Source of the DNA: Candidatus Shapirobacteria bacterium | Lineage (GTDB): Bacteria > Patescibacteriota > Microgenomatia > UBA12405 | Direction of reading: 5' to 3' | Length of the DNA: 64,000 nucleotides | Assembly: GCA_041665485.1 (NCBI GenBank) | Contig: JBAYIT010000002.1 | Coordinates: 133,867 to 197,866, forward strand | Shown here: positions 3,857 to 41,239 of the stretch, piece after piece | Position numbering within the stretch: the stretch's first letter is position 1 | Layout: every line of letters begins with the position of its first letter | Translations under genes and position numbers: made by a program | The notes under the pieces: model-generated | Told to the model about the DNA's origin: nothing | Databases searched by the model: none | The model's input: only the letters and a program-made list of their open reading frames with translations

Positions 3857-4282
3857 TTAAGCACTCAACTTATACCCACCTACTCCACTTTCCAAAAATT
3901 CCTCTTTTTCCTCCCACTCAACCTCTTCTGTTTTAACCAACATTCCTTGTACCAATTTCTGCCCCTTAGTTATACTCATCGATTTATCAGTAGGATTCAT
4001 AAACTCCATTAATACTTCATCCTTATCTCCGCAATAAAACGGATCAACCACTCCGGCTCCATGTGGCACGATTAACCCGGTCTTAAGAGGTGTGCTACTT
4101 CGGCTAAATAACAACATCACATAACCATGAGGAACCTGTATTGCCACGTTTAATGGTATTAACACGATTTTACCGGGATCAACAACCATGTCTTCTCTAC
4201 AGTAAAAATCAAAGCAAGCCGCACCCTTATCATATTCCGGCAACGGCAAACTTTTATCAATTCTCTTTATTCTTAATTTCAT
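3857..4282 (-). CDS. dut: dUTP diphosphatase (trimeric dUTPase family)
   Basis: Motifs AACFDFY, SRSS, GAGVVDPFYCGDKDEV and KLVQGML match dUTPase motifs 1-4. The start is taken at MKLRIKR, an ATG whose A overlaps the stop of the upstream gene (TAATG). Confidence 0.7.
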   Translation of the reverse strand: MKLRIKRIDKSLPLPEYDKGAACFDFYCREDMVVDPGKIVLIPLNVAIQVPHGYVMLLFSRSSTPLKTGLIVPHGAGVVDPFYCGDKDEVLMEFMNPTDKSMSITKGQKLVQGMLVKTEEVEWEEKEEFLESGVGGYKLSA

Positions 4283-6654: not shown

Positions 6655-6682
6655 TTAATCATGCTAAACAGTTAAAACCTCC

Positions 6683-7567
6683 ATGTCAAGCAAAAATAAT
6701 CAGTATGTTTCCGTAGTAATCGTTAATTACAACTCAACCAAGCACCTAAACAAATTACTAAAATCGACGCAAAAAATAGAAACAAATATCGGCGAAATAA
6801 TAATCATTGATAACGATTCAAAGGTTTTTGAAGAAATATTAAACATACCAAGATGGTTAGTAGGTAAAGTAATAATTCTAAAAAACCAAACAAATTTTGG
6901 ATTTTCTAAAGCCGTAAATCGAGGAATTAAAATAGCAAAACACAAACTCATATTACTATTGAATCCAGATACTCAAATAATTGATAACTCAATATCAAGC
7001 ACTATCCAAATAATTAGTAACAATAAGGATATAGGATTAATCGGAGGAAAATTAATATCAGAAGAAACAGGAAACGAACAACCCACTGCAAACACAAAAC
7101 CAACTGCGCTAACCGCCATTTTTGAGTTTACAATACTGAAAAAAATATTTCCTAACAATAGGTTCACAAAAAAATTCTGGCCAGAAAAAGATAAACACAT
7201 CTCATCACCCATAGAAGTCGAGAGTCTCTGTGGAGCATTCATAATCTTCAGAAAAGAAATAAAAAAACAAAAAATAAGATTTGACGAAAACTATTTTTTA
7301 TATCTAGAAGATTTAGATTTTGGCACCGAAATAAAAAACAATGGCTTAAAAGTGATATTCGACCCAAATTCCAAAGTTGTTCACAAGGGTGGCGCAAGCA
7401 GTAATAGCCGATATAACATAGAGTTGAAACATTGGTATGATTCTAGAAACTACTACTTCACAAAACACCTAAATAATAGCGAAGCGGTTATAATAAAGAT
7501 GATATTCAAACTAGAATTTTATTTACTAAAAATTTTCCATAAATTAAGAAAAACCCCAGAATACTAA
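6683..7567 (+). CDS. family 2 glycosyltransferase
   Basis: VSVVIVNYNS...IIIDNDS and a DxD region, typical of the GT2 N-terminus. Confidence 0.75.
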   Translation: MSSKNNQYVSVVIVNYNSTKHLNKLLKSTQKIETNIGEIIIIDNDSKVFEEILNIPRWLVGKVIILKNQTNFGFSKAVNRGIKIAKHKLILLLNPDTQIIDNSISSTIQIISNNKDIGLIGGKLISEETGNEQPTANTKPTALTAIFEFTILKKIFPNNRFTKKFWPEKDKHISSPIEVESLCGAFIIFRKEIKKQKIRFDENYFLYLEDLDFGTEIKNNGLKVIFDPNSKVVHKGGASSNSRYNIELKHWYDSRNYYFTKHLNNSEAVIIKMIFKLEFYLLKIFHKLRKTPEY

Positions 7568-8337
7568 TGTCCCCAATCACCATCCTTCTCCTCACTAAAA
7601 ACGAATCGGAAAATATAAAGAAGTATTGGGGGTGGGTAGGGGAGTGCCCTAACATCAACCAAATAGTGGTTGTTGACGACTTTTCCACCGACGACACTCT
7701 TACTCAAATTAGTAAATTAAAAACTAAAAATTTAAAAGTTGACGTTTTTCAACGCCACCTCGATAACAACTTTTCTGCTCAACGCCAATTCGCTCTAACT
7801 AAAGCTAAAAATAACTGGATTCTTTGGCTTGACGCCGACGAGAAACCATCACCAGAACTAATTCGATTTATTAACAAAACTCAATTTTTAGAAAAAGTTA
7901 TTTATTCTTTCCCCCGCCAAGACCAATTCTTAGGCCAAATCTTAAAACACGGCGAAACCGCCAATCAGGTTTTTCTCCGCCTTTTCCTCAAAAACTCCGG
8001 CCATTTTGTTGGCGCCGTCCACGAAGTTTGGTCAACCAATCTAACTATTTCAAAAGTTAATTCTCCCATTTTTCATTTCCCCCATCAAAATCTCACTGGT
8101 TTTTTTCAAAAAATTAATTTTTACACTGATATCAAGGCCCAAGAACTTTATCAGCAAAAAATCAAAACCAATATTTTTCAAATTATTTTCTACCCCATCC
8201 TTAAATTTAAACAAAACTACATCTTTCGTCTCGGTTTCCTCGACTCCACTGCCGGCATGATTTTAGCCCTAGGTATGAGCTTTCATTCATTTTTAGTTCG
8301 GGCAAAACTATGGCACCTTTGGTCTCAACGATCTTGA
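7567..8337 (+). CDS. family 2 glycosyltransferase
   Basis: ITILLLTKNESENI...VVVDDFSTDDT, a GT2 signature. The ATG overlaps the upstream stop. Confidence 0.7.
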   Translation: MSPITILLLTKNESENIKKYWGWVGECPNINQIVVVDDFSTDDTLTQISKLKTKNLKVDVFQRHLDNNFSAQRQFALTKAKNNWILWLDADEKPSPELIRFINKTQFLEKVIYSFPRQDQFLGQILKHGETANQVFLRLFLKNSGHFVGAVHEVWSTNLTISKVNSPIFHFPHQNLTGFFQKINFYTDIKAQELYQQKIKTNIFQIIFYPILKFKQNYIFRLGFLDSTAGMILALGMSFHSFLVRAKLWHLWSQRS

Positions 8338-9392: not shown

Positions 9393-10095
9393 TTTCAATC
9401 TCTCTTTTGGCTTCATTTCCCGCCAAATCTCGAACTAAAATCAAAATCGGATTTTTCCCTGGACTCAATTGAAACTTAAGTTTGAAATTACCGCTGTCAT
9501 CAACCATAGCCAGCCGGCCATTAACTGTTACGTTTGCTCCCTTTTCTGCTTGGCCAACAATATCAAAGTCAGCATAATCCACCGTCAAAGTCGCCTCTGA
9601 GGGATTAGTCATTGTCAAAGTCGGTGGCATATCATCATAAATCACCGTGGTAGGTTTAGATGGTTCACTACTACCACTCTTTTCCGATGTCGCAATTGCC
9701 GTTAATAAGTTACTTCCTTTGTCAAGTGACACTTGCTCAAAAACAAACTCACCGGTCTCACTAGCATTAGTCTTGTCGTAAAGAACGTCGTCTTTCAATA
9801 GCTCTATCTCCAATCCAGGCTCAGAAACTCCACCTACATTGATCGTAGCACTATTGGTTGCTTCATAAGCGACAATCAACCGAGGTTGCGGTGGTGGAAT
9901 AACCTTCTCTTCCACTATTTTCTCTCTTCGACTTTTAACTTCACCCAACACGATCGAGAACTTAACCAAAAGTGGTAAGCCAAAGACCAAAACTGACACA
10001 AAAACCAGCAATGTCACCACTCCCAAGATAATTGTTTTCCTGGTAATTTGATCTTCTTCCTTCCTCTCTAATCTTGATCTTCTGAATTCCGCCAT
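9376..10095 (-). CDS. membrane-anchored protein with Ig-like (Big) beta domains
   Basis: N-terminal TM, then a T/S-rich beta-strand region, with no catalytic motif. Confidence 0.35.
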   Translation of the reverse strand: MAEFRRSRLERKEEDQITRKTIILGVVTLLVFVSVLVFGLPLLVKFSIVLGEVKSRREKIVEEKVIPPPQPRLIVAYEATNSATINVGGVSEPGLEIELLKDDVLYDKTNASETGEFVFEQVSLDKGSNLLTAIATSEKSGSSEPSKPTTVIYDDMPPTLTMTNPSEATLTVDYADFDIVGQAEKGANVTVNGRLAMVDDSGNFKLKFQLSPGKNPILILVRDLAGNEAKREIEITYDI

Positions 10096-10117
10096 ATTTA
10101 TATATATTTTAACAAAG

Positions 10118-10963
10118 CTAGAAAAGGTTTGTTGGCATTTTAATACGACTTATCTTTCCCACAAAAATCGACTTTCCCCTCTTCTTAGTAAGTACATAAC
10201 GTCTAAAGGATAGACCACTTTCCTTCGGAAAATATTTTTTTCCTGTTTCCACATCAAATTTAACGTAGTTAAATCCGCATCTTCCGAAAAGATCCTCATA
10301 ATATTTTACTGACCAACATTTTCTTTCCGTCCCTTGGATCAATTCTATACTCCCATCCTCCCTTGTTTTAAATGAAGTAAAAGAACCAGGTATCCCAACC
10401 GCCTTTAGTGGTACCAGTTCCTGGTCTTCACCATACTTAATCCCATCATATTTTTTATCGACAGCCACCGTAAAAAGAGAAAAAGACGATTCATTGTGTT
10501 TAAGAACACGGCCAATCTCCGTAAGTGTCCTTTCGTTGTCCTTATTTGTCTGATTAAAATTGACAGCACAATCGTTGATTACTACATCAATAGAATTACT
10601 CCCCAATGGGATCGCGTTCATATCCCCTTGTAAAATTTTTACGTTCGAATATCTACCATCTTCGCAATGGTCTTTGTGAGATTTTATAGAAACTGGCGAC
10701 ACATCTATTAAAACAATGGAATCTTTCGGATTCTTCCTCTTTTGTAACCATGTCTTTACCACATCGATATTTCTAGGAAAAGTCGATCCTTCAATTAAAA
10801 CTCTCACAGGTAAAGGCTGTTTCAATATTTCTTGAATATTAGACACCAAACTAGACTTAAGAACAGCATCAAAAAGGTGTGCCAAGGTAATTAATTTTTC
10901 TTTCGGATCCTCAAATAATGACCGATATTGTGAATCCGAATTAAGTAAAATGTTTCCGTTCAT
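10118..10963 (-). CDS. class I SAM-dependent methyltransferase-like protein
   Basis: Rossmann-like motifs VLIDVSP, GDMNAIPLGSNSIDVVI and LTEIGRVLK. Confidence 0.4.
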   Translation of the reverse strand: MNGNILLNSDSQYRSLFEDPKEKLITLAHLFDAVLKSSLVSNIQEILKQPLPVRVLIEGSTFPRNIDVVKTWLQKRKNPKDSIVLIDVSPVSIKSHKDHCEDGRYSNVKILQGDMNAIPLGSNSIDVVINDCAVNFNQTNKDNERTLTEIGRVLKHNESSFSLFTVAVDKKYDGIKYGEDQELVPLKAVGIPGSFTSFKTREDGSIELIQGTERKCWSVKYYEDLFGRCGFNYVKFDVETGKKYFPKESGLSFRRYVLTKKRGKSIFVGKISRIKMPTNLF

Positions 10964-11071: not shown

Positions 11072-11107
11072 CAAACACCATTCCGTAGCCCTAAAGGGGC
11101 GTAGGAT

Positions 11108-11181
11108 GGGAGCGGCTAGAGGGAATCGGACCCTCGACTAATCCTTGGGAAGGACTCGTTTTACCACTAAACCATAGCCGC
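11108..11181 (-). tRNA. tRNA-Gly (anticodon CCC), CCA encoded
   Basis: The reverse-complement folds as gcggcta..., anticodon loop ttCCCaa, T-arm gaggg-tccgatt-ccctc, acceptor tagccgc-t-cca. Confidence 0.75.
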
Positions 11182-11188
11182 AACCAGT

Positions 11189-11716
11189 CTATTTTACCAT
11201 CCTCAACACCGTCCCCACCCTTATCATATTCGGGTTAGGAATTACCACTCGGTTCAAATTCCAAATCTCCGTCCACTTAAAGCCATCACCATACTGGGTT
11301 ACCGCTATTTTCCACAAACTATCACCATTTTTGACTTGATAATCTACCATCTCTTCAGCCGGTGCACTTATTTTTAACACCTGGCCTACCGCTAACAAAC
11401 TAGGGTTTTTTAGCCCATTAATTTGGGCAATTTCCGTCCACTTATAACCATCTCCCAGTTGAGCCACCGCAATTTTCCACAGACTATCACCCTTTTTAAC
11501 CATATATTCTCCGGCTGTTAACTTGACTTCTTTTTTCTCTTCTACCTTTTCCTCCAATGACCCTTCTCCCACCAAAGCCAACTCACTTGTCGTTCCCGGC
11601 ACCGACACACTTCCCCTTTGTTTTTGAAAATAATTAACCACTACCACGGCTACTGCTACCACCACTAACAATCCCAAAAACATACTTATGACATCTTCAT
11701 TATTTTTTATATTCAT
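11189..11716 (-). CDS. membrane-anchored protein with two LysM peptidoglycan-binding domains
   Basis: N-terminal TM plus two repeats, YMVKKGDSLWKIAVAQLGDGYKWTEIAQ and YQVKNGDSLWKIAVTQYGDGFKWTEI, both LysM. Confidence 0.8.
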   Translation of the reverse strand: MNIKNNEDVISMFLGLLVVVAVAVVVVNYFQKQRGSVSVPGTTSELALVGEGSLEEKVEEKKEVKLTAGEYMVKKGDSLWKIAVAQLGDGYKWTEIAQINGLKNPSLLAVGQVLKISAPAEEMVDYQVKNGDSLWKIAVTQYGDGFKWTEIWNLNRVVIPNPNMIRVGTVLRMVK

Positions 11717-11759
11717 ACCACCACCTTACAGTATTGAGGGCCTATAGTCAAAGACAATA

Positions 11760-12077
11760 TTACATTTTTCTCCGTAGAATTATCTCATCACTCAAATACG
11801 GCGCCGTCTCTGATCCAAACCTATTTATCTCTTTTATAAAACTATTCCAAACTTCAGCATTTATCTTATATATTCTATTTTTCCTTTTTATTTCCACTAT
11901 CACTAAATCAGCCTTCTTCATTTTTGCCAAATGGGCTGACACGGTTGCCTGGCCAATTACCATCTTCTCAACTATTTCTCCCACCTCCCTTGGCCTCTCT
12001 TTTAATAAGGTCAAAATCAGCCGTCGGCTTCTATCAGCCAATATTTTAAATATTTTATCCATATCGTTAACTATCAA
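11760..12077 (-). CDS. ArsR/SmtB family transcriptional regulator
   Basis: ILADRSRRLILTLL...EVGEIVEKMVIGQATVSAHLAKM, a winged helix typical of ArsR. Confidence 0.7.
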   Translation of the reverse strand: MIVNDMDKIFKILADRSRRLILTLLKERPREVGEIVEKMVIGQATVSAHLAKMKKADLVIVEIKRKNRIYKINAEVWNSFIKEINRFGSETAPYLSDEIILRRKM

Positions 12078-27973: not shown

Positions 27974-29434
27974 ATGTTTGAACAATCATTTAAAAACATC
28001 GACAATATTCTCCACACTGATTCTGGTTGCGCCACTGAACTTGATTATGTTGAGCAAACCTCATGGATTCTTTTCCTAAAATATCTTGATGATTTAGAAG
28101 AAGATAAAAAGAAATCAGCCAGTTTGTCCGGAAAAAATTATGATTATATTTTGTCTCCGGAGTTTCGCTGGAATTCTTGGGCCTGCCCCAAAAATAGTAG
28201 CAACAAGCTAGACCTCAACAAAGCCCTCGACGGCGACGACTTAAGAGATTTTGTCAACAATAATCTCTTTCCCTATCTCAAAAAATTTAAAGCCGATAAA
28301 AACGAAGACCGAAACACCATTGAATACAAAATCGGCGAAATTTTCTTTGAATTAAAAAATAAAATTTCCAGTGGTTACAAACTTCGGGAAATTTTAAATA
28401 TCGTCGATGACATGCACTTTCGTCTTTACCAAGAAAAACATGAATTGTCTTACCTCTACGAAGCCAAAATCAAAAACATGGGTAACGCTGGCCGCAATGG
28501 CGGCGAATACTACACCCCCCGCCCCCTCATCAAAACTATTATCAAAGTCGTCGCCCCCAAACTTGGCGAAACAATTTACGACGGCGCTTGCGGCAGTGCC
28601 GGGTTCTTAGTCGAGTCATACAACTATCTAACCCAAGACCAAGCCCACCTGTCCTCAAGCCAAATGGAAGCCCTCCAAACCACCACCTTTTTTGGCAAAG
28701 AAATAAAATCTCTCGCCTACATCATCGGCATTATGAATATGATTTTGCACGGCATTGAAGCCCCAAATATTCGCCACATGAATACTTTATCCGACAATAT
28801 CAACGATATCCAAGAAAAAGACCGCTTTGATATTGTTCTGGCCAATCCGCCCTTCGGCGCCGGCATTGGCCGAGAAATTCAACAAAACTTTCCCATTAAA
28901 ACCGGTGAAACCGCTTTTCTTTTTCTCCAACATTTCATCAAAATTCTCAAAGCTGGTGGCCGGGCCGGCATTGTCATTAAAAATACTTTTCTTTCTAACA
29001 CCGACAATGCCTCAGTAAGTTTACGCAAACTGCTTTTGGAAAATTGCAATCTCCATACTGTCCTTGATTTACCCGGCGGCGCGTTTCAAGGTGCTGGCGT
29101 TAAAACTGTTGTTTTGTTTTTTGAAAAAGGTGCGGCCACTAAAAAAGTTTGGTTTTATCAACTTAATCTTGATCGCAATTTGGGCAAAGGTAATCCTTTA
29201 AATGAAGCCGATTTAGCCGAATTTGTCGAACTCCAAAAAATTCAAGCCACTAGCCCCAACTCTTGGAATGTCGACGTTTCCACCATCGACCAATCCACCT
29301 TCGACCTCTCCCCCAAAAATCCCAACACCGACCCCGGGCCAATTAACAGAGAACCGAAAGAAATTCTAGATGAGATGAAGAAATTGAGTCGGGAATCTGA
29401 ATTAATATTAGCAAAGATAAAAGATTTAATCTAA
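27974..29434 (+). CDS. hsdM: type I restriction-modification system methyltransferase subunit HsdM
   Basis: HsdM N-terminal domain, motif I DGACGSAGFL, motif IV ANPPFG. Confidence 0.9.
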   Translation: MFEQSFKNIDNILHTDSGCATELDYVEQTSWILFLKYLDDLEEDKKKSASLSGKNYDYILSPEFRWNSWACPKNSSNKLDLNKALDGDDLRDFVNNNLFPYLKKFKADKNEDRNTIEYKIGEIFFELKNKISSGYKLREILNIVDDMHFRLYQEKHELSYLYEAKIKNMGNAGRNGGEYYTPRPLIKTIIKVVAPKLGETIYDGACGSAGFLVESYNYLTQDQAHLSSSQMEALQTTTFFGKEIKSLAYIIGIMNMILHGIEAPNIRHMNTLSDNINDIQEKDRFDIVLANPPFGAGIGREIQQNFPIKTGETAFLFLQHFIKILKAGGRAGIVIKNTFLSNTDNASVSLRKLLLENCNLHTVLDLPGGAFQGAGVKTVVLFFEKGAATKKVWFYQLNLDRNLGKGNPLNEADLAEFVELQKIQATSPNSWNVDVSTIDQSTFDLSPKNPNTDPGPINREPKEILDEMKKLSRESELILAKIKDLI

Positions 29435-29437
29435 AAA

Positions 29438-30214
29438 ATGGACGTATCGCCTAATTATTTAATGAAGTTAGTTGGACAAATTGATGCAAAAATTTGGCAA
29501 GTTTTTGAAACTTATAAAAATGTAAATTTCTACATTAAAAAATGGCAAACCTATGACAGCTTTGGTAATGCAAATTTCAATATATCGTATATCGACAACA
29601 AAATTGATTTAAAAGACACCCTCCACTCAATTGACAACGAAAATTTAATTAAAATTGCAGTCGATCTGGGTATTGAAACTCCAGATTTTATTCCATCAGT
29701 CCCAGTAATTAAAAATGTTTTAAAAAATAATTTTCCAACCGCTTTTGATACTTTTAAAAAAGCCATTGATCAAATTGAAGAAAATCCAGATTTAGCTATT
29801 GGTTCAGCAAATTCCACTTTAGAAAGTATTATCAAACACATTTCTGATAATAGTAATATTTCAAAAAAAGTCAACAAAAAAGACACCCTTTATAAACTAA
29901 CCCAGGATATTTTGAAAGAGTTTTCTCTTTTTCCAACCAAATCAATCCCGGTAGAGATAAAAACTATCGGGAGCAGTTTGTTAAATCTATCCCAAAACAT
30001 AGAAAGTTTGAGAAGTAATAAAACAACCTTTCATGGCAAGTCAGCTAATGATTATATTGTCGATGATCCCCTGTATGCCTATTTTATTGTAAACATTGTT
30101 TCTTCAATCGGATTATTTTTGATTAGTTTTTATGAAAAGAAATACAATAAACTTGACCTAAAAAGTTCCGGTGAATATGTCAACGAAACAACCATCGATG
30201 AGATGCCTTTTTAA
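29438..30214 (+). CDS. hypothetical protein embedded between hsdM and hsdS (possible HEPN/Abi-like)
   Basis: 258 aa, starting 3 bp after the hsdM stop. It contains RSNKTTFH (Rx6H), compatible with a HEPN motif. It has a C-terminal hydrophobic segment and no other recognisable motif. Confidence 0.45.
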   Translation: MDVSPNYLMKLVGQIDAKIWQVFETYKNVNFYIKKWQTYDSFGNANFNISYIDNKIDLKDTLHSIDNENLIKIAVDLGIETPDFIPSVPVIKNVLKNNFPTAFDTFKKAIDQIEENPDLAIGSANSTLESIIKHISDNSNISKKVNKKDTLYKLTQDILKEFSLFPTKSIPVEIKTIGSSLLNLSQNIESLRSNKTTFHGKSANDYIVDDPLYAYFIVNIVSSIGLFLISFYEKKYNKLDLKSSGEYVNETTIDEMPF

Positions 30215-30231: not shown

Positions 30232-31446
30232 ATGAAACCTAATTGGCCAACCAAAAGACTTGTGGATCTATATGAAATTACCTCGAGCAAAAGGGTTTTT
30301 AAATCGGAATGGAAAAGCAATGGGATACCTTTTTACAGAGCCAGAGAAATTGTTAAATTAGCACAAAACGGATTTGTTAACAATGAATTGTTCATCTCAA
30401 AAGAGATGTTTGACAAATATTCCGTAAAATACGGCATACCAAAGGAAGGAGACATAATGGTTACAGGAGTAGGCACCCTAGGAATTTGTTATGTAGTTAA
30501 AAATAACGATAAATTTTATTTTAAAGATGGGAACATCATCTGGTTAAAAAAGAAAAGTGATGTCATCACCAAATTTGTTGAATATGCCTTTAAATCAGAC
30601 TTTTTGAGAAAGCAAATAGATAATAGTGCAGGAGCTACGGTGGGAACTTACACCATAATAAAAGCAAAAAATACGATCATTCCTCTTCCACCTCTCCCCG
30701 AACAGATCCACATTGTAGAAATTTTGGATGATGTATTTGAGGATATAAAAAAAGTTAAAGAAAACACTGAAAAGAATCTCCAAAATTTCAAAGACCTTTT
30801 TGAATCATATTTAGACAGTATTTTTAATAATCCAAACGGCAACTTTGAAAATAAAAAAATCAAAGACATTGCTGAAATAAAAGGCGGAAAAAGAGTTCCA
30901 AGAGGATATAAGTTAAAAAATGAAAAAACTAAATATCCGTATATTCGAGTAGCTGATTTTAACAACCATGGCAACATTGACCTCGAAAACATCAAATATG
31001 TTGATAAAAACATTTATGAGCAAATTAAAAATTACACCATTTCAACAAAAGATTTATATATAAGTATTGCCGGTACGATAGGTAAAACAGGCATAATTCC
31101 CCAAGAATTAGAAGGAGCTAATTTAACAGAAAATTCCTGTAAACTGGTTTTTAAAGACAATATCTATAACCGATATATTTACTTTTTTACTAAAAGCACC
31201 GAATTTATTAAACAAGCGGGACTAAATACAAGAAAAGTCGCAATGCCTAAACTTGCCTTAACCAGATTGGGAAACATATTAATTCCAATACCAAAATCAA
31301 TTTCCGAACAAAAGGCAATTGTGGCCAAGTTAGACACATTGGCAGGGGAGACGAAAAATCTGGAGGTGATTTATAAGCAAAAATTGGCCGATTTAGAAGA
31401 ACTGAAAAAATCCATATTAAGCAAGGCCTTTAGTGGAGAATTATAG
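30232..31446 (+). CDS. hsdS: type I restriction-modification system specificity subunit HsdS
   Basis: Two target-recognition domains separated by the conserved LPPLPEQIHIVEILD, with a C-terminal conserved helix. Confidence 0.85.
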   Translation: MKPNWPTKRLVDLYEITSSKRVFKSEWKSNGIPFYRAREIVKLAQNGFVNNELFISKEMFDKYSVKYGIPKEGDIMVTGVGTLGICYVVKNNDKFYFKDGNIIWLKKKSDVITKFVEYAFKSDFLRKQIDNSAGATVGTYTIIKAKNTIIPLPPLPEQIHIVEILDDVFEDIKKVKENTEKNLQNFKDLFESYLDSIFNNPNGNFENKKIKDIAEIKGGKRVPRGYKLKNEKTKYPYIRVADFNNHGNIDLENIKYVDKNIYEQIKNYTISTKDLYISIAGTIGKTGIIPQELEGANLTENSCKLVFKDNIYNRYIYFFTKSTEFIKQAGLNTRKVAMPKLALTRLGNILIPIPKSISEQKAIVAKLDTLAGETKNLEVIYKQKLADLEELKKSILSKAFSGEL

Positions 31447-31640
31447 CCGTGGTAAACTTAAAGCATGAGTAAGCTTATACCCAAAAAAAGAGGTGACACA
31501 CTGGTTAAAACTATCGAGAAGAAATACGGTGTTGACTTGAAATATCGATCAGATGCCCAGCTTCACACCGTACTGGAAAAAGAAGGCTTACCCTCTCTTT
31601 CCAAACTCCTAAAAATGACTCGAAAATAGTCCAAACGATT

Positions 31641-32174
31641 ATGAGTGGTTTTGAATTTATAAAAAGCAAGGAACTCCGCCAGACGCTCGAAAACTCCATC
31701 GAATACATCTACACTCTCTACGAACGGGCAAAAAACGGAGAAGAAAAGCAATTATATAAAGAAGAAACATATCGAGTCATTATTTTGTATGTAATTTCTG
31801 TCATCGAAGCTGTACTTTTTTATTTTTACAAAGAACGTGGAGAAAAAATCGAATCTTTTGAATATAAATATATTAATCAACTTCCGCAAAGTTATACTCA
31901 CACTCTAAAAAAAGATATGCCTATAGTTGTTGCCGTCCAAGAAAAAATCGAAAAAAGTCAGGTTGGTCTGTACGAACTTATAAAATTTTTTAGAGGAAAA
32001 AAACTCATAAAAGAAAGCACCGCCTCCGATATTTTAGAATTAAATGATATTAGAAATACTTTTCACCTTAATAAAGCCCGTACAAAAAGATGCGATATCA
32101 AACAAGTTGAATCAGCTCTAAAATTACTTGTACACACAATTGAAAACGCCCCAAAGGCCTTGAAAATCAATTAA
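31641..32174 (+). CDS. hypothetical all-alpha protein embedded between hsdS and hsdR
   Basis: 177 aa, unknown function. It contains DIRNTFH. It belongs to the class of small genes embedded in restriction-modification operons. Confidence 0.4.
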   Translation: MSGFEFIKSKELRQTLENSIEYIYTLYERAKNGEEKQLYKEETYRVIILYVISVIEAVLFYFYKERGEKIESFEYKYINQLPQSYTHTLKKDMPIVVAVQEKIEKSQVGLYELIKFFRGKKLIKESTASDILELNDIRNTFHLNKARTKRCDIKQVESALKLLVHTIENAPKALKIN

Positions 32175-32210: not shown

Positions 32211-34565
32211 ATGAACGAAGCCGAAACCCGAGCCGAATACATTGATCCCAAGCTTAAAGCCAGTGGTTGGGGAGAAGTCGAAGATTCAAAGGTGTCGCGC
32301 GAATTTCATATCACCGACGGCCGAATCCAAACCGGTGGTGTTCGCGGTAAACCGGAAATCGCTGATTATATTTTGGTATATAAAAACCGCAGAATCGGCG
32401 TTATTGAAGCCAAAGCCGAAAATCTTTCAGTCACCGAAGGTGTCACCCAAGCCAAAGCCTACGCCACCAAATTGCAAATCGATTATGCCTACTCCACCAA
32501 TGGCCACGAAATTTACGAAATCTGTTTAAAAACCGGCCAAGAGGGGATTGTTCCCAATTTTCCCACTCCAAACGAACTGTGGCAAAAAACTTTTTCCCAT
32601 CAAAACCAATGGCAAGAACAATTTGACAATATCCCCTTTGAAGACGGTGGCACCGGCAAAAAACCTAGGTACTATCAAGAAATTGCCGTCAACAATATCG
32701 TTAAAGCCGTCGCCGAAGAAAAAAATCGAATTCTTCTAACCCTCGCCACTGGCACCGGAAAAACTTTTGTTGCTTTCCAAGTTGCTTGGAAACTATTTCA
32801 AACTCGCTGGAATTTAAAACGTGACGGTAACCGCCGGCCAAGAATTTTATTTTTAGCCGACCGGAATATTTTAGCCGACCAAGCCTTCAATGCTTTTTCC
32901 GCCTTTGACAAAGATGCTCTGGTTCGCATCAATCCTCTAGATATTCGCAAAAAAGGCGGTGTACCAATAAGCGGTAGTGTCTTTTTTACTATCTTTCAGA
33001 CCTTTATGAGTGGTAAAGACGGCAGCCCCTATTTTGGCGACTATCCCGCCGACTTTTTCGACCTAATTATCATCGACGAATGTCATCGTGGTGGCGCCAA
33101 CGATGAAAGCAATTGGCGAGGAATTCTCGACTATTTTTCTCCCGCCGTTCAACTTGGTCTAACCGCCACCCCCAAACGAAAAGATAATATCGATACTTAT
33201 AAATATTTCGGTGATCCAGTCTATATTTACTCACTTAAAGACGGTGTTAACGATGGTTTTTTAACTCCTTTTAAAATCAAACGCATTAAAACCACTCTCG
33301 ATGATTATGTCTACACCTCCGACGATCAAATTATCGAGGGCGAAGTGGAAGAAGGCAAGATATACAAAGAACCAGATTTTAATCGAATCATTGTCATTAA
33401 AGAACGCGAAGCCAATAGAGTTCGAATTGTCCTAGACGAAATCAATCAAAGCGAAAAAACAATTATTTTTTGCGCCACCCAAGATCATGCCCTTGCTGTC
33501 CGCGACTTAGTCAATCAGATGAAAGATAGCAAAGACCCCAATTATTGTGTCCGCGTAACCGCCAACGACGGCGATCGGGGCGAACAATTCTTGCGCGAAT
33601 TTCAAGACAACGAAAAAACCATTCCCACCATTCTTACCACTTCCCAAAAACTCTCAACCGGAGTCGACGCCCGCAATATTCGCAATATTGTTTTAATGAG
33701 GCCGATCAATTCCATGATTGAATTCAAACAAATTATTGGTCGTGGCACTAGGCTTTTTGATGGTAAAGAATACTTTACTATTTACGACTTCGTCGATGCT
33801 TATAAGCATTTTTCCGATCCAGAGTGGGACGGGGAACCAATTGATGAGACTACCGACGGACCGAGTGGCCCAGGAGAAGATGGTCCAGGAGGGGATCCAC
33901 CGCCAAAGATTTGTCCTATTTGTGGCAAAGAACCCTGTGAATGTGAAAAAAACCCACCAAAGAAAAAATTAAAAATAAAATTACGTGATGGTAAAGAGAG
34001 GGAAATAAAACATATGATCGCCACCTCATTTTGGAGCGCCGACGGTAAACCAATCACCATTCAAGAATTTATTAATAACATGTATGGCGCTATGCCCGAA
34101 TTTTTCAAATCAGAAGAAGAATTAAGAACCATTTGGTCAAACCCCACCACCCGCAAAGTATTCTTGGAGAAGATCGCCGAAATTGGTTATGGCAAGGATG
34201 AATTAGAAACTTTACAAAAAATAATTGAGGCGGAAAATTCCGACCTTTTCGACGTCCTTACTTATGTTTCTTTTTGCACCCCGCCAATTTCTCGAATCGA
34301 TAGAGTCGAATCGGCAAAACAAAAAATATTTGAGGGTTTGGAAAGTAAACAGAAAGAATTTTTGGATTTTGTTTTATCAAAATATCAGGAAAAAGGAGTC
34401 GAAGAGCTCGATGAGGATAAACTACCAATTTTACTCAATTTGAAATATCACGCCATTGCCAACGCCGAACAATCACTCGGAAATGTCGAAGACATTAGGG
34501 CAATCTTCTTTGGTTTCCAAAAAAATCTTTACGCCAAACCAATCCAGCTATATGCAGACCAATAA
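32211..34565 (+). CDS. hsdR: type I restriction enzyme R subunit HsdR
   Basis: N-terminus MNEAETRAEYIDPKL..GW (the HsdR_N domain). Helicase motifs TGTGKT, DECHRG, QIIGRGTR. A C-terminal Cys4 ribbon CPICGKEPCEC. Confidence 0.9.
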   Translation: MNEAETRAEYIDPKLKASGWGEVEDSKVSREFHITDGRIQTGGVRGKPEIADYILVYKNRRIGVIEAKAENLSVTEGVTQAKAYATKLQIDYAYSTNGHEIYEICLKTGQEGIVPNFPTPNELWQKTFSHQNQWQEQFDNIPFEDGGTGKKPRYYQEIAVNNIVKAVAEEKNRILLTLATGTGKTFVAFQVAWKLFQTRWNLKRDGNRRPRILFLADRNILADQAFNAFSAFDKDALVRINPLDIRKKGGVPISGSVFFTIFQTFMSGKDGSPYFGDYPADFFDLIIIDECHRGGANDESNWRGILDYFSPAVQLGLTATPKRKDNIDTYKYFGDPVYIYSLKDGVNDGFLTPFKIKRIKTTLDDYVYTSDDQIIEGEVEEGKIYKEPDFNRIIVIKEREANRVRIVLDEINQSEKTIIFCATQDHALAVRDLVNQMKDSKDPNYCVRVTANDGDRGEQFLREFQDNEKTIPTILTTSQKLSTGVDARNIRNIVLMRPINSMIEFKQIIGRGTRLFDGKEYFTIYDFVDAYKHFSDPEWDGEPIDETTDGPSGPGEDGPGGDPPPKICPICGKEPCECEKNPPKKKLKIKLRDGKEREIKHMIATSFWSADGKPITIQEFINNMYGAMPEFFKSEEELRTIWSNPTTRKVFLEKIAEIGYGKDELETLQKIIEAENSDLFDVLTYVSFCTPPISRIDRVESAKQKIFEGLESKQKEFLDFVLSKYQEKGVEELDEDKLPILLNLKYHAIANAEQSLGNVEDIRAIFFGFQKNLYAKPIQLYADQ

Positions 34566-34839: not shown

Positions 34840-34872
34840 GGTATGGCAGTAACATATAATTACTGCCATACC
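34840..34872. promoter_or_regulatory. perfect 13-bp inverted repeat (GGTATGGCAGTAA-N7-TTACTGCCATACC) next to a TTGACA...TATAAT-like promoter
   Basis: It lies 15 bp upstream of the 34887 ORF and is followed by atttcttttc. It could be an operator or an intrinsic terminator. Confidence 0.4.
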
Positions 34873-35921: not shown

Positions 35922-36076
35922 AAAGGAGGGGATAGGGGTAGATTTTAATTTTAAGCCCCAAAAAAACACACATCAAATACATACTTGCGTTAAATTTGCC
36001 AAACTATAGGCCTAAACGCGACACTTTCCTCATTTTTCTGTATACTCTTTCTAATAATAAACCGATTCTGATTCAA

Positions 36077-39000
36077 ATGAACTTCCGCCAGTTAGCTACT
36101 ATCATTATTCTTTTCTTTCTCTTCCCCTCGTTTATCGCCAAAAAGGCTTATGCCGCCAACCGCACTTGGGATGGCGGTGGCGGGGCTAACACCAATTGGT
36201 CAACTGCCGCCAACTGGTTAGACAACACTGTCCCCTTATCTGGCGACGCCGTTATTTTTGACGGCACTTCCTCCAACAACTCAACCATCGACGCCTCGTT
36301 TGCCGGCACCATTACCAGCCTTTCCATCAACGCCGGTTACGGTGGCACTATCACTCAAGAGCGGTCTCTAACCACCAGTGGTGGTTTTACCCAATCCGCC
36401 GGAACCTATACCGCCGCCGCCCAATCGCTTACCGTCAATGCATCACTAACTCTAAACGGTGGCTCCCTGACTGCCTCCTCAGTAACAACTACTATTGGCG
36501 GTAGCTTAGCCTTAAATGGGGGAATATTCAGCCACAACTCCGGTAACATCGTTTTTTCCACTACTAATTCCACCACCATCACTTGTACTGCCGGCCCTCT
36601 AAACACCATCTCCATTAGTAAAGCCAACAGCAGTATTCAAGTTACCATCTCAGCCAATTGTATTGTTAATTTTCCCAGCGCCGATCCCAGTTCAACCGGC
36701 GCCATTATTAACAACGGAACGGTAAATATAACCGGTAACTGGTCACTTACCGGCGATTACACCGCCAACGTCGGATCATCACTAGCCGTCACCGGCACTA
36801 CTCTATCCGCCCGCCATCTTGTCCTAACCGGAGGCGTTTTTCCCCAAGGAATAACCGATATTACCCTCGGTGGCAATCTAACCAATACCGCCAATCTTCT
36901 TCCCAACGGCACCAATCTTATCCTTAATGGCTCCGTCAATAGCACCCTAAATTGTGGCACTGCCACTTTTTCTTCCCTTACCATCAGCAAGGCTGGCTAC
37001 TACGATGTCAATATTTCCAACAATTGTGCTTTTTCTATTGCTGGCACCAATCCCACCTCAACCGGAAAAATAGTCAATAGTGGCAATCTCACTGTTACTG
37101 GTAATTGGACCGTCAACGGCAGTTATCAAAGCGAAACCGGAGGCCAACTTTCCCTGTCGGGCACCGATCTCACCCTCCAAAGAGACCTTGTCATCAATGG
37201 CGGTTCTTTTCCCGCTTCAAAAAACATCATTTTCAGCGGAAATAGTAGCACTGTTCTTACTTGTGCCAACGCCACCTTTAATTCTGTCTCTCTTTCTCAC
37301 GGTTGGAATTACACTATCAGTATTTCCGCCGGTTGCACCGTTCCTCTATCCGGCACTAATCCGACTATTTCCGGCGGAGTCACCAACAATGGTTCGATTG
37401 GCGCCACTGGCAATTTAACTATAGATGGTGGCTACATTCAAAACTCTGGCGCTTCTCTTCAAATTTCTGGCACTTCTCTTTCTATCGGTCATGGAAATTT
37501 AACTCTTTCCGGTGGTTCTTTTCCCCAAAACATCACCACTATTAGTGTTGAAAATGGCGTTGTTGACAACTCCCAAAGTCTCATCCCCAATGGAGTTGAT
37601 CTTACTCTAACTGGGTCAAGTACTAATAATATTTCTTGTGGTAATGCCAACTTCAATAGTATTACTTTAAACAGAACTGTCGGGGGAATCACTCCTGTTA
37701 GTAATTGCAATATCGGCAATCTAACTATCACCACCGGCGTTATCAATAACTCCGCCACCGCTTATTCATACAATATTACTGGAAACTATTCTCAAGCCTC
37801 TCCCGGATCTGTTGGTGGTTCTAATCTTACCCTGGCTTTTACCGGAAGTTTGGCCCAAACTATCTCAAAAGTCGGTGGCACCCTTGCTTCCCCCCTCCAA
37901 ATTAATAAAACTGGCTCAAATGCTCTGTCACTTTCAACTCCGCTTACCACCACTTCAACTTGTACTGTCACTGAAGGTATCTTCAATCTCAATGGCCAGT
38001 TATTTACCTGTGGCTCAACTTTCACCATCGAAGACGGTGGCACTCTTACCTTATTTGGCTCTGAAATACCTACCACTCCTACTCTTGATTCGGGATCAAA
38101 TGTTATCTACAAAGGAAACGGTGGAGAAAATCAAAATGTTTACAAAGTTAAAGCCTGGAATTATTCCAATCTAACTATTAACCCCACCAATAGCCAAGAT
38201 ATCATCACCTCTACCGTCACTGATTATCTCCCCGGTGCTACTTATCGCTATTGGAAATTCGACGACGGAGTCGGAACAAGTACTGTCGACAGTTCCGGAA
38301 ATAGTGTCAATGGAGTTTTACAAAACATGGAGGCCGACGATTGGAATTCATCCATAAAAGCCACCCTGCCCTTCACCAACGGTTATTCGCTCGCCTTCGA
38401 TGGTTCAACCAGCGAACAGGTTGTTGTCAGCGATGCTATCGATCCAACCGCCTATACTATTTGTGCTTGGGTTCGCCCCTCAGACGTTACCAGTACTAGT
38501 ATTATTATAAGATCCGGAGCCGTTCCCACCACCACTTATCAAGACCAAATATTGATTGACTCCAATAGTAAATTCGAATATTACTCCTATGACGGCGCCT
38601 CCGTCAGGGTTGTCGGCACCTCCACCGTCGTCGCCAATCAATGGCACCATGTTTGCGTTTCCGCCCAAAATAACGGTCAAGCCAAACTATACGTCAATGG
38701 TGTCAGCGAAGGCACCCCCGACACCGTCGGCACTCTAGCCACCACCGCCGACCGCTGGGCTATCGGTTCAAATAGTGGTGGGTCTATGGGTTGGTATGCC
38801 GGCTATATCGACGATGTCCGAGTTTACAACACTGTTTTGTCCGACAACCAAATTTATGCCCTTTCTGACATCGGTCCATCAGTTATCAGCGCCATTACTG
38901 TTGGCGGAAACTTCACTATTACCAGTGGAACTTTTATTTCTCCCACCACTTTTAACATCGCCGGCAATTGGTCAAACACCGGCCTCTTTACTCACAATAA

Positions 39001-41239
39001 CGGTTCTGTTGTTTTTACCGGCGGTAACCAAGAAATATCTGGCTCCAACACCTTCTATAACTTCACTAAAAATGTTACTTCTGCTTATACTCTTACTCTC
39101 CCAGGTGATCTAACCAAAACTCAAACTTTTGCCGGTACTCTTGATCTAAGAGGTATTGCCGATCATCTCTTAACTCTCAATTCCTCTCTCCATCAAACTC
39201 AAGCCAAAATCGACCCTCAATCCACCAGATCAGTCCAATACTTGGCCGTCCACGATATTAATAATATTAATTCTACTTCTATTCCCGTTCTTGGCCTTAA
39301 TGTCACTGATTTGGGCAATAACACCGGCTGGGGCTTCAATCAAGCCCCTCAAGGCCCCACCTCTCTTGGCCCGGCCGGCTTTATTAATGGCAATTATTCA
39401 GGCGACACCACCCCTACCCTGGAATTTACTCTTTCCGATCCCGATTCCGCCGATACCGTTAAATATTTAATCGAAATCGACGACTCAAGCAACTACTCTT
39501 CGCCACTTATCAGCTACACTTCAGATCTTGCCCCCCAAGGCTCAACTTCTTTCACCGTTAGCCAAGATCAAGCACTCCCCGAGGGCCAATATTATTGGCG
39601 GGTTAAAGCCGTCGACAACAACGACAATCAAAGTTCATTTACTACCGCCAGTATCGGAGACTCGCCCGCTTTTATCATCGACAACACTGCCCCCACCAAT
39701 CCCGGCAATCCCTCCACCACCTCTCCCACCAACCAAACCACCCAAACCTGGTCGTGGTCTTCAGCCACCGACGCCTTATCGGGTATTGCTTTTTATCTTT
39801 GGCGAATAACCGACAATCTCGGCAATGCTCTCACTAACGGCACCACTGCCCTATCTTCTTTAACTTCAAATCTAACTCAAGGTATTTTTAGTCTCTTTGT
39901 TAAAAGTCAGGATAATGTTGGCCACCAAAGTAGCGAGTCACCAGGCTCTCTTGTCGTCGACACCACCGCCCCCGTCACCACCAGTTCCGGCACCGACACT
40001 TCTTGGCACGACACTCCTGTCACTGTTACTCTGGAATGTTCCGACACTGGTGGTTCAACTTGTGCCAATACCTATTACACCACCAATGGCGCCAATCCCA
40101 CCACCAGCTCCTCAATTGGCACCACCATTGTTTTGTCAGCCGACGGTGTTTATACCATAAAATATTTTTCCAAAGACACCGCCGGCAACAGTGAATCAAT
40201 CAAAACTGCCGCCAATACCGTAAAAATAGACACTACCCCTCCCACTCCTACTCCCACCCAAACTCCGACTCCAACCCCAACTCAAACCCCAACACCAACG
40301 CCAACTCAAACCCCAACTCCCACTTCTGTCCCAACTTCAACCCCAACCCAAATTCCAACACCAACTCAAACTCCCACTGAAACTCCAACTCCAACCCCAA
40401 CATCTAGCATCCAAGATGTTGGATCCAACACTTCCGGCTCTGTTGCCGGTGTTTCAATCAATCAGGCTCCAACTTGCAACAACCAAACCCCCGGCTCCAA
40501 AGCTCCTCACCTATATGGCGCCAGCGCCAATAACCAAAACTCCATTACTCTTTATTTTTCCGGCGCCGACCTACCTTTTGATCACTACGATCTCTCCTTT
40601 GGTCTAAAATCAGGGGAATATTCTTTTGGCGCCACCAATCTCCCCAAAGACATCAGTCAATATCAAGCCAATAATCTTTCTTCCAATACCACCTATTACT
40701 TCAAAATCAGGCCCGGCAATGGTTGTGCCACCGGCAATTGGTCAAATGAAATTTCCGCCACCACTATGTCCAATATTTCTTTAAATCAAATTGAAACAAC
40801 CGCTCTGTCTCTCGAAACTATCCCCCCAAAACCAAACCCTTCGCCAACTCCCAGTTCTAATCCTTCTCCTTCTCCTCCCCAACCCGCCGACTATCAACTC
40901 CAAATCAAAGTTGTCGACAACCTTAAAAAGCCAATTGTTGGCGCTCAAGTTACTATTCATTCCAAAACTCAAAAAGCCTACACCGATGGGCAGGGGATTG
41001 CTCGTTTTACCAATGTCGAGCCGGGAAACCATAGGGTTCTTATTGCCTACAACGACTATCAAGGCGAGCAAAGCCTCTTTCTCACCGGCAACATTCCGCA
41101 AGTTGACATCAATATTTCCATCAAACTCAATCCTGTCTCCATCTCCCGCTTTACTATTATTATTACCACCTCCCTCTCTCTCATAATTGTCCTCCTCGTC
41201 GTCTATATCCTCAAACAAAAAAATAAATTTAAAAATTAG
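36077..41239 (+). CDS. giant cell-surface protein (1721 aa) with signal peptide, beta-helical repeats, LamG-like domain, PT-rich linker and C-terminal TM anchor
   Basis: Start at MNFRQLATIIILFFLF (signal peptide). Repetitive T/S/N/G-rich beta-helix-like repeats. A LamG-like stretch QWHHVCVSAQNNGQAKLYVNGV. A (TPTPTQ)n linker. A C-terminal CarbopepD-like beta domain and a TM segment IIITTSLSLIIVLLVVYIL. Confidence 0.75.
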   Translation: MNFRQLATIIILFFLFPSFIAKKAYAANRTWDGGGGANTNWSTAANWLDNTVPLSGDAVIFDGTSSNNSTIDASFAGTITSLSINAGYGGTITQERSLTTSGGFTQSAGTYTAAAQSLTVNASLTLNGGSLTASSVTTTIGGSLALNGGIFSHNSGNIVFSTTNSTTITCTAGPLNTISISKANSSIQVTISANCIVNFPSADPSSTGAIINNGTVNITGNWSLTGDYTANVGSSLAVTGTTLSARHLVLTGGVFPQGITDITLGGNLTNTANLLPNGTNLILNGSVNSTLNCGTATFSSLTISKAGYYDVNISNNCAFSIAGTNPTSTGKIVNSGNLTVTGNWTVNGSYQSETGGQLSLSGTDLTLQRDLVINGGSFPASKNIIFSGNSSTVLTCANATFNSVSLSHGWNYTISISAGCTVPLSGTNPTISGGVTNNGSIGATGNLTIDGGYIQNSGASLQISGTSLSIGHGNLTLSGGSFPQNITTISVENGVVDNSQSLIPNGVDLTLTGSSTNNISCGNANFNSITLNRTVGGITPVSNCNIGNLTITTGVINNSATAYSYNITGNYSQASPGSVGGSNLTLAFTGSLAQTISKVGGTLASPLQINKTGSNALSLSTPLTTTSTCTVTEGIFNLNGQLFTCGSTFTIEDGGTLTLFGSEIPTTPTLDSGSNVIYKGNGGENQNVYKVKAWNYSNLTINPTNSQDIITSTVTDYLPGATYRYWKFDDGVGTSTVDSSGNSVNGVLQNMEADDWNSSIKATLPFTNGYSLAFDGSTSEQVVVSDAIDPTAYTICAWVRPSDVTSTSIIIRSGAVPTTTYQDQILIDSNSKFEYYSYDGASVRVVGTSTVVANQWHHVCVSAQNNGQAKLYVNGVSEGTPDTVGTLATTADRWAIGSNSGGSMGWYAGYIDDVRVYNTVLSDNQIYALSDIGPSVISAITVGGNFTITSGTFISPTTFNIAGNWSNTGLFTHNNGSVVFTGGNQEISGSNTFYNFTKNVTSAYTLTLPGDLTKTQTFAGTLDLRGIADHLLTLNSSLHQTQAKIDPQSTRSVQYLAVHDINNINSTSIPVLGLNVTDLGNNTGWGFNQAPQGPTSLGPAGFINGNYSGDTTPTLEFTLSDPDSADTVKYLIEIDDSSNYSSPLISYTSDLAPQGSTSFTVSQDQALPEGQYYWRVKAVDNNDNQSSFTTASIGDSPAFIIDNTAPTNPGNPSTTSPTNQTTQTWSWSSATDALSGIAFYLWRITDNLGNALTNGTTALSSLTSNLTQGIFSLFVKSQDNVGHQSSESPGSLVVDTTAPVTTSSGTDTSWHDTPVTVTLECSDTGGSTCANTYYTTNGANPTTSSSIGTTIVLSADGVYTIKYFSKDTAGNSESIKTAANTVKIDTTPPTPTPTQTPTPTPTQTPTPTPTQTPTPTSVPTSTPTQIPTPTQTPTETPTPTPTSSIQDVGSNTSGSVAGVSINQAPTCNNQTPGSKAPHLYGASANNQNSITLYFSGADLPFDHYDLSFGLKSGEYSFGATNLPKDISQYQANNLSSNTTYYFKIRPGNGCATGNWSNEISATTMSNISLNQIETTALSLETIPPKPNPSPTPSSNPSPSPPQPADYQLQIKVVDNLKKPIVGAQVTIHSKTQKAYTDGQGIARFTNVEPGNHRVLIAYNDYQGEQSLFLTGNIPQVDINISIKLNPVSISRFTIIITTSLSLIIVLLVVYILKQKNKFKN

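Follow-up and report, generated by a model that had tools for sequence, protein, structure and literature searches.

In a 64,000-nt stretch of Candidatus Shapirobacteria DNA (contig JBAYIT010000002.1; hereafter the window, with all coordinates counted from its first letter), we analyzed a gene for a 258-aa protein that lies between hsdM and hsdS of a type I restriction–modification (R-M) operon. The gene product is best explained as a soluble cytoplasmic HEPN effector of the Abi_C/AbiJ family that is carried as cargo in the R-M operon and ends in a tip resembling the C-terminus of SSB (the protein that binds single-stranded DNA), an overall reading that we regard as likely. An embedded HEPN gene as such is ordinary, and the added value lies in the conserved SSB-tip-like tail, which was absent from the original prediction for this gene. 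The parts of the gene are as follows.

29438–30214 (stop included), + strand: target gene, Abi_C/AbiJ-family HEPN protein, 258 aa (Pfam Abi_C, PF14355)
29438–29773, + strand: N-terminal domain, aa 1 to ~112, conserved alpha+beta module (predicted local distance difference test, pLDDT, 93–96 over aa 11–70)
29774–30145, + strand: HEPN (Abi_C) domain, aa ~113–236, four predicted helices (domain-only AlphaFold2 model, PHROG 23253, tblastn)
29786–29845, + strand: helix alpha1 with the conserved ANSxLES element (N125, E129, K133)
30011–30040, + strand: catalytic-type motif R192-S193-NKTTF-H199-G200-K201 (motif residues invariant in 30 homologs)
30071–30133, + strand: hydrophobic segment, aa 212–232, HEPN helix alpha4: LYAYFIVNIVSSIGLFLISFY
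30146–30196, + strand: variable disordered linker, aa 237–253 (pLDDT 30–33; length and sequence unconserved in the alignment)
30197–30211, + strand: C-terminal tip D-E-M-P-F-COOH, SSB-like (tail counts in homologs)

Assignment to the Abi_C family and the catalytic-type motif

The Pfam profile Abi_C (PF14355, 'Abortive infection C-terminus') matched aa 153–229 over profile positions 2–82 of 83 (E 2.4e-10), with a score of 40.8 bits compared to a curated gathering cut-off of 24, and PHROG 23253 matched aa 98–232 (E 1e-8). The protein has 691 homologs at E<=1e-3, and its full-length relatives are ~255–265 aa long and 50–64% identical; among the homologs listed, 120 of 120 carried PF14355. Plasmid-encoded 'abortive infection family' proteins were aligned by tblastn over aa 79/106–240, that is, across the HEPN domain. 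A protein of 100% identity is deposited at NCBI as 'abortive infection family protein [Candidatus Shapirobacteria bacterium]'. As there are 691 homologs and an identical NCBI protein, the open reading frame (ORF) is a genuine gene that did not arise by chance, and the gene itself is an ordinary one that is already publicly annotated as a member of the abortive-infection family. Abi_C corresponds to the AbiJ (Abi-859) family, a family assigned to the HEPN superfamily by Anantharaman et al. (2013, PMC3710099).

The original prediction had drawn attention to the residues RSNKTTFH, whose spacing was thought to match that of HEPN RNase motifs. These residues (aa 192–199, nt 30011–30034) do fit the spacing in the form R-polar-X5-H, which is the commonest motif spacing among Abi_C proteins (PMC13590631), and the protein thus has the conserved R-polar-X(3-5)-H motif near the C-terminus by which Abi_C/AbiJ proteins are recognized. 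In an alignment of 30 diverse homologs, R192, S193, T196, H199, G200, and K201 were invariant, as were N125, L128, E129, and K133 of helix alpha1. R192, H199, and G200, as well as L128, E129, and K133, were also retained in plasmid Abi_C proteins of 23–24% identity. As the motif residues are invariant across the 30 homologs and R192, H199, and G200 persist in distant relatives, the R..H pair is not due to chance. With a profile match above the cut-off and invariant motif residues, the HEPN reading was borne out, and we assign the protein to the Abi_C HEPN effectors with high confidence.

A characterized reference for the function of such a protein is SadR from Staphylococcus aureus, an Abi_C protein that acts as an ssRNA-specific defence RNase and loses both RNase activity and phage defence upon the exchanges R225A, N226A, or H232A (Kondo et al., Nat Commun 2026, PMC13590631). 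By analogy, R192-S193-X5-H199 may form a putative RNase site together with N125 and E129 of helix 1.

Structure predictions agreed with this assignment in topology. The full-length AlphaFold2 model had a mean pLDDT of 74.5, with ~77–83 in the helical C-terminal domain, and a domain-only model (aa 108–240) reached a pLDDT of 77.4 and a predicted template modeling score (pTM) of 0.71. Its helices are at construct positions 10–29, 44–54, 65–87, and 104–129; R192 ends helix 3 and H199 is in the following loop, so that the motif lies between helices 3 and 4. The predicted helix topology thus fits a HEPN domain. When we searched the full-length model against the PDB and BFVD and the HEPN-only model against the PDB with Foldseek, only generic helical bundles without significance were found. 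HEPN entries were among these weak matches, namely 1o3u (TM-scores 0.47/0.51), 4nqf, HepS (9oij), Csm6, and Las1. The case for HEPN membership is built on the profile match and the conserved motif.

Several points weigh against the assignment. In the structure check, the four helices came in the expected order, but the pLDDT of the R..H loop was below 50. The best Foldseek E values were 0.07–1, PDB sequence-profile searches (A1, A2, A3) gave noise only, and PADLOC and NCBIfam scans of the protein gave no match. The empty PADLOC result agrees with the report that PADLOC recognizes no Abi_C protein (PMC13590631). RNase activity has been demonstrated for SadR, from which the target would take it by homology.

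Two other origins were considered and rejected. A HEPN-MNT type II toxin–antitoxin pair does not apply, as the neighbors are hsdM and hsdS and no nucleotidyltransferase domain was found in any protein of the operon. A phage origin was rejected with only 6 relatives among 2.9 million viral contigs.

The N-terminal domain is well conserved, with S4, P5, Y26, W36, F47, T61, L62, K72, A74, D76, G78, T81, P82, and F84 being invariant in the 30-homolog alignment. It had no Pfam match at E<=0.1 and none to the Pfam AbiJ_NTD models at E<=1, and distant Abi_C proteins do not have it. It may be a candidate for the AbiJ-NTD2 described in PMC3710099, the prototype of which is a Bacteroides fragilis protein. 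On the basis of the analogous AbiJ-NTD modules, the domain presumably has a regulatory or sensory role. We also noted a metagenomic protein of 219 aa (P0369) in which the N-terminal domain of the family (aa 2–115) is followed by an unrelated C-terminal region of ~100 aa and no HEPN domain. This is a hint at a mobile N-terminal module, but it comes from one sequence, and an assembly chimera could account for it.

The hydrophobic segment as predicted helix 4 of the HEPN domain

The original prediction had further proposed that the hydrophobic C-terminal region could be a membrane anchor. The hydrophobicity as such is real: the Kyte–Doolittle (KD) mean over 19 residues reaches 1.91, which is the maximum of the protein, and there is no second segment of this kind. 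If this segment were a tail anchor, it would hold the RNase on the inner side of the membrane; alternatively, the protein would disrupt the membrane. In favor of an anchor and against a soluble protein, the KD values of 1.8–1.9 exceed the classical transmembrane threshold of 1.6.

However, the segment falls within the Abi_C profile match and, in the full-length as well as the domain-only model, forms the predicted helix alpha4 immediately behind the R..H loop. The homologous stretch of distant Abi_C proteins (RHASLAVNTAGAIATFLVETY, RHARLAIHSAHTIGLYILESW, and similar) is amphipathic and charged, with Arg, His, and Glu residues, KD values of 0.2–0.9, and sums of +9 to +15 on the biological scale of Hessa. 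This distant helix (RHAxLAVNxA..LFLxETY) shares the Ala, Val-Asn, and LFL..Y landmarks with the target segment. For the target segment itself, the Hessa sum is +1.5 to +1.8, which makes membrane insertion unfavorable, and the family consensus has a KD value of 1.28 and a Hessa sum of +5.2; a helix of transmembrane grade, as would be expected of a single-pass or tail-anchored protein, is thus not conserved among the relatives. N219 and G225 in the middle of helix 4 are invariant in the 30 homologs, and an invariant Asn at this position argues against an anchor. Behind the helix come a Lys-rich flank (EKKYNK) and the conserved acidic tail, and such an extension of 26 residues past the segment is atypical for a tail anchor. 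In the compact domain-only model, helix 4 is the most confident C-terminal part. SadR, in addition, was purified and assayed in phosphate-buffered saline, which suggests that it is soluble (PMC13590631).

The anchor part of the original prediction was therefore not upheld. That the protein is not membrane-anchored is very likely in our view, and a membrane-anchored HEPN protein is correspondingly highly improbable. Helix 4 is best explained as a predicted part of the HEPN core or of a dimer interface. Correcting the anchor reading averts a false lead.

A conserved C-terminal tail resembling the tip of SSB

Behind helix 4, the full-length model is disordered (aa 238–258, pLDDT ~30), and the protein ends with IDEMPF. 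This end is a family trait: 77 of the 80 complete homologs from genome loci terminate with [LIVF]PF-COOH, 45 of them with DDLPF, and of 189 full-length members, among them 50%-identity cluster representatives down to E ~1e-28, 147 have the tail. Among the 1,864 ORFs of the relatives' loci (~1,800 of them non-family), the same ending was found in only 2 non-family ORFs, and in the window it occurred in 1 of 409 stop-to-stop segments, the target alone. As the ending is nearly absent from other ORFs and segments, the tail is not a compositional accident. Distant Abi_C proteins stop 2–8 residues after helix 4 and have no such tail.

The extreme C-terminus of SSB (SSB-Ct) is a docking site for many genome-maintenance proteins. 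SSB of E. coli and Klebsiella ends with DDDIPF, that of S. aureus, B. subtilis, and S. mutans with DDDLPF (PMC5531588, PMC5143411), and variants such as LDDEIPF and FDDEIPF occur in Proteobacteria (PMC13490951). RecT/Red-beta annealing proteins recognize the last 7 residues of the host SSB (10.1101/2020.04.14.041095). The tail of the target family has the same build, with a terminal acidic run and [IL]-P-F-COOH that follow a disordered and poorly conserved linker, and the majority form DDLPF is identical to the last five residues of Gram-positive SsbA. In contrast to SSB, no SSB or OB domain was found in the target with Pfam; we therefore rejected the possibility that it is an SSB family member, as it has no OB-fold ssDNA-binding domain. 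The window copy also differs in its tip DEMPF, which has a Met at position -3. The beta-clamp-binding consensus QL[SD]LF was considered for the tail as well and rejected, as its hydrophobic positions are misaligned with D-D-L-P-F, while SSB-Ct is matched exactly.

IPF ends were found in the few proteobacterial-type members (a gammaproteobacterial locus, L003, and a Sulfurimonas locus, L012) and LPF ends in members from Bacteroidota and Firmicutes. This split by host group is suggestive of a matching to the host but is confounded by phylogeny. An ssb gene was sought by tblastn with E. coli SSB in the window and the 82 loci of our context sample, and none was found; the corresponding plasmid search gave matches in Enterobacterales only.

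On balance, the sequence conservation favors a tail that functions as a protein-docking motif of some kind. That it would specifically engage SSB-Ct-binding proteins as a sensor is possible, albeit clearly less probable. As a further step, the Abi_C/AbiJ subfamily could use its SSB-tip mimic as the infection sensor, which we propose only tentatively and consider somewhat less probable still. In such a decoy sensor, the phage proteins that grab SSB tails (annealing proteins of the RecT/Red-beta/Erf type, helicases, primases) or, alternatively, host SSB partners that are recruited to phage ssDNA would bind the tail, and this binding would release or assemble the latent HEPN RNase. As a phage cannot easily lose SSB-Ct binding, such a strategy would guard a universal hub motif by means of a decoy ('guard by decoy').

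Three points weigh against a role of the tail as SSB mimic. The Met of the window tip is not the canonical I or L. SadR probably has neither the linker nor the SSB-like tip, as only 34 residues follow its catalytic His. The only reported phage escaper of SadR (80-alpha) maps to a single-strand annealing protein (PMC13590631), which counts in favor of the tail model but is only a loose parallel to it.

A different function of the same residues would be that of a degradation tag, with [LI]PF-COOH sending the toxin to ClpXP or another protease and thereby keeping its level low, until an overload or inhibition of the protease during infection stabilizes the RNase. The tail would be suited for this, being terminal, strongly conserved, and placed after a disordered linker, and the terminal tripeptide LPF of S. 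mutans SsbA suffices for the degradation of GFP by ClpXP (PMC5143411), which speaks for a tag and against a docking motif. However, this signal is not recognized by ClpXP of E. coli or S. gordonii, so that recognition is strain-dependent (PMC5143411), whereas the family spans many phyla. Furthermore, the acidic residues that are conserved in the family are used by the pockets of SSB-Ct partners, whereas LPF alone was sufficient for S. mutans ClpXP. We therefore consider a degradation tag quite improbable and prefer a docking motif.

Similar tips were seen in two other proteins of the relatives' loci. In a Galbibacter sp. metagenome-assembled genome (MAG; L018), a UvrD-like superfamily 1 helicase of 506 aa (3897–5417) ends with YDDDLPF and is directly followed by DarT, an ssDNA thymidine ADP-ribosyltransferase (5421–6107), and an ADP-ribosylglycohydrolase (6107–7642), with the Abi_C homolog ~350 nt further downstream. 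In an uncultured Gammaproteobacteria MAG (L003), a PD-(D/E)XK nuclease of 227 aa (11101–11784) with a Cas4/RecB-like Cys cluster near the C-terminus ends with NKQEGIPF; it is encoded downstream of an hsdR-hsdM-Abi_C-hsdS cluster. The tails of this helicase and this nuclease are a hint that defence islands may use SSB-tip mimicry repeatedly as a module.

In a full-text literature search, we found neither an SSB-tip mimic on a defence protein nor the combination of N-terminal domain, Abi_C domain, disordered linker, and SSB-like tip described, which is weak evidence of novelty.

The type I restriction–modification operon of the window

The gene was originally described as tightly coupled to hsdM, and this holds: the hsdM stop codon TAA (29432–29434) is followed by AAA and the start codon ATG at 29438, which leaves a gap of 3 nt (TAAAAAATG). 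On the other side, the gene ends 17 nt before hsdS. The other features of the operon are listed here.

27974–29434, + strand: hsdM, methyltransferase subunit of the type I R-M system, 486 aa (Pfam N6_Mtase E 5.3e-62, HsdM_N E 3.9e-9; GC 41.0%)
30232–31446, + strand: hsdS, specificity subunit, 404 aa (Pfam Methylase_S in two stretches, E 6e-36; GC 32.2%)
31465–31629, + strand: orf54, first gene of a second embedded cargo module that is separate from the Abi_C gene
31641–32174, + strand: orf177, second gene of the same cargo module (GC 32.2%)
32211–34565, + strand: hsdR, restriction subunit, 784 aa (Pfam ResIII E 1.6e-36, EcoEI_R_C E 4.9e-25; GC 42.0%)
34840–34872, + strand: terminator-like hairpin with a 13-bp stem and a T-run, likely end of the six-gene operon

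The six genes (hsdM, the target gene, hsdS, orf54, orf177, and hsdR) are on one strand with gaps of 3–36 nt, and the target gene is probably co-transcribed with the hsd genes. The only strong terminator-like hairpin is the one after hsdR, the sites inside the operon being weak, although the number of terminator-like sites over the whole scanned region (9 found versus 7.8 expected) is at chance level. The target gene has a GC content of 29.7% (27% at third codon positions) as compared to 41.0% in hsdM, 42.0% in hsdR, and 41% in the whole window. As this contrast occurs within one operon, it suggests that hsdS and the embedded genes may have been acquired or exchanged separately from the enzyme subunits HsdM and HsdR, and the target gene is best explained as horizontally acquired low-GC cargo inside the type I R-M operon. 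The hsd operon accommodates at least two independent low-GC cargo modules and in this sense acts as a docking site. An unrelated predicted surface protein of 1747 aa with Thr/Pro-rich repeats and a C-terminal hydrophobic anchor is encoded just downstream of the operon (35996–41239).

The second module, orf54 and orf177, gave no match to Pfam, NCBIfam, PADLOC, or PHROGs. The 184 homologs of orf177 are mostly from Patescibacteria and none has a Pfam domain; the family shares an invariant N-D-x-R-N-T-F-(H) motif (NDVRNTFH in the window copy) and a hydrophobic helix. The orf177 homolog is always preceded, in each of three unrelated contexts, by a 57-aa ORF of 81–89% identity to orf54 that lies 2–5 nt upstream, and the two genes thus look like a toxin–antitoxin-like or defence pair. 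A kinship of orf177 to the target as a second HEPN protein was rejected, as hhalign gave a probability of 1% and detected no relationship.

Genomic context of the relatives

For the comparison of contexts, we used 82 loci (80 genome loci and 2 metagenome loci) and searched their ORFs for Hsd-like neighbors with the Hsd proteins of the window, followed by hidden Markov models made from the first matches. Hsd-like genes were found within 5 kb in 39 of the 82 loci, mostly abutting the Abi_C gene and in at least four gene orders. When only loci with at least 4 kb of flanking sequence on both sides were counted, an Hsd-like neighbor was present in 15 of 41 and none was detected in 26 of 41. Loci of the latter kind include one beside RhuM and TraG-like genes (L002) and the DarT island of Galbibacter (L018). 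The family is widespread, with most occurrences in Bacteroidota and others in Patescibacteria, Ignavibacteriota, and some Proteobacteria. That HEPN genes can be embedded in R-M operons, as the original prediction had stated, is known, such HEPN/Abi genes having been described since 2013.

The order M-Abi-S-R of the window recurs in L004, L003, and L035, whereas M-S-Abi-R is found in L005, L007, L023, L026, L039, L071, and L080, and the Abi_C gene directly follows a fused methyltransferase of ~1000 aa in L006, L010, L012, L027, and L028. Bacteroides and Prevotella have the order R-M-(YhcG/DUF1016 nuclease)-Abi-S, accompanied by a tyrosine recombinase and by hsdS copies in inverted orientation. 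In Bacteroides clarus (L020, 5146–12562), for example, hsdR, hsdM, a YhcG/DUF1016 PD-(D/E)XK nuclease, Abi_C, and hsdS are followed by an inverted hsdS fragment, a tyrosine recombinase, and another hsdS; this arrangement, which is similar in L029, L074, and L079, is that of a phase-variable type I R-M locus.

In the closest Patescibacteria locus (L004), hsdM and hsdR are ~70% identical to those of the window but the Abi protein is only 58% identical. The slot between hsdS and hsdR is filled in this MAG by an unrelated ORF of 169 aa without Pfam match (9881–10390), and as this ORF replaces orf54 and orf177 of the window, the slot behaves like a variable cargo site.

The location raises the question of whether the protein could be a guard of the R-M system in the manner of PrrC. 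The Hsd complex would then mask the HEPN RNase via its tail or N-terminal domain, which would bind an Hsd subunit, and a phage anti-restriction protein that disables the complex would free the RNase, so that the trigger would be the loss of R-M function. The position of the gene in one operon, at 3 nt from hsdM and 17 nt from hsdS, the presence of Hsd-like genes, typically abutting, at up to 5 kb in 39 of the 82 loci, and the EcoEI_R_C domain of the window HsdR are compatible with such a guard. There is also a precedent in PrrC/EcoprrI, as described for HEPN RNases in type Ic hsd operons (PMC3710099). However, no R-M neighbor was detected for about half of the homologs, and the R-M type and gene order vary (M-x-S-R, M-S-x-R, R-M-nuclease-x-S, after a fused methyltransferase), which is not what a co-evolved protein interface would lead one to expect. 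Stand-alone copies have an equally conserved tail, the GC contrast suggests different histories of the cargo and of hsdM/hsdR, and no ABC-ATPase domain was found in the target with Pfam at E<=1. A PrrC-like guard is thus unlikely in our view. The distribution is best explained by a putative mobile single-gene effector that is often lodged in R-M operons and is not a co-evolved R-M subunit.

Proposed mode of action

Based on these results, we propose a protein of three parts, with an N-terminal domain of ~112 aa, a four-helix HEPN domain, and a linker of ~20 residues that ends with [DE][DE][LIM]PF-COOH. The RNase would be cytoplasmic, probably dimeric, and latent in uninfected cells. Infection would switch it on, and the resulting RNA cleavage would stop translation and thereby abort the infection, so that the RNase would serve as a second defence line behind the co-expressed type I R-M enzyme. 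The SSB-like tip could be the handle for localization or activation: it may dock in the SSB-Ct pocket of a host genome-maintenance protein or, alternatively, may be a decoy for a phage replication or recombination protein, such as an annealing protein of the RecT/Red-beta type. The tail may in this way link RNase-based abortive infection to the replication and recombination machinery of phages.

Comparison with known systems

PrrC/EcoprrI, an anticodon nuclease of a type Ic hsd operon, resembles the target in that a HEPN RNase gene lies between type I hsd genes and forms a second line behind restriction. In contrast to the target, PrrC has an N-terminal ABC-ATPase and an obligate link to Hsd; the target has no ABC-ATPase fused to its HEPN domain and the family is not consistently embedded in type I hsd operons, its homologs often being found alone.

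With the AbiJ family, as described in PMC3710099, the target shares the profile match, the Rx4-6H motif, and the arrangement of a HEPN domain at the C-terminus behind an N-terminal domain. It differs in that its N-terminal domain matches no AbiJ_NTD model of Pfam and in its SSB-like C-terminal tip, of which the available part of that paper makes no mention.

SadR is also among the closest known systems. Both are single-gene effectors of ~260 aa in which an N-terminal region precedes a C-terminal Abi_C HEPN domain, both have the R-polar-X5-H motif (RNEYGDAH in SadR, RSNKTTFH in the target), and both are found in a defence or mobile-element context and are not recognized by PADLOC. SadR migrates at roughly dimer size on native gels (PMC13590631). 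The two differ in the region after the catalytic His, which has 34 residues in SadR and 59 in the target as judged from the description of SadR, and in location, as SadR is encoded beside rlmH or SCCmec and not within an hsd operon. The authors of the SadR study propose activation by phage proteins or by replication/recombination intermediates and state that how Abi_C RNases stay silent and sense infection 'remains unclear' (PMC13590631). In this respect, the five-residue terminal motif of the family described here is a cheap and direct experimental handle on Abi_C activation. By analogy, the target would work like SadR or AbiJ and would resemble PrrC in its location only.

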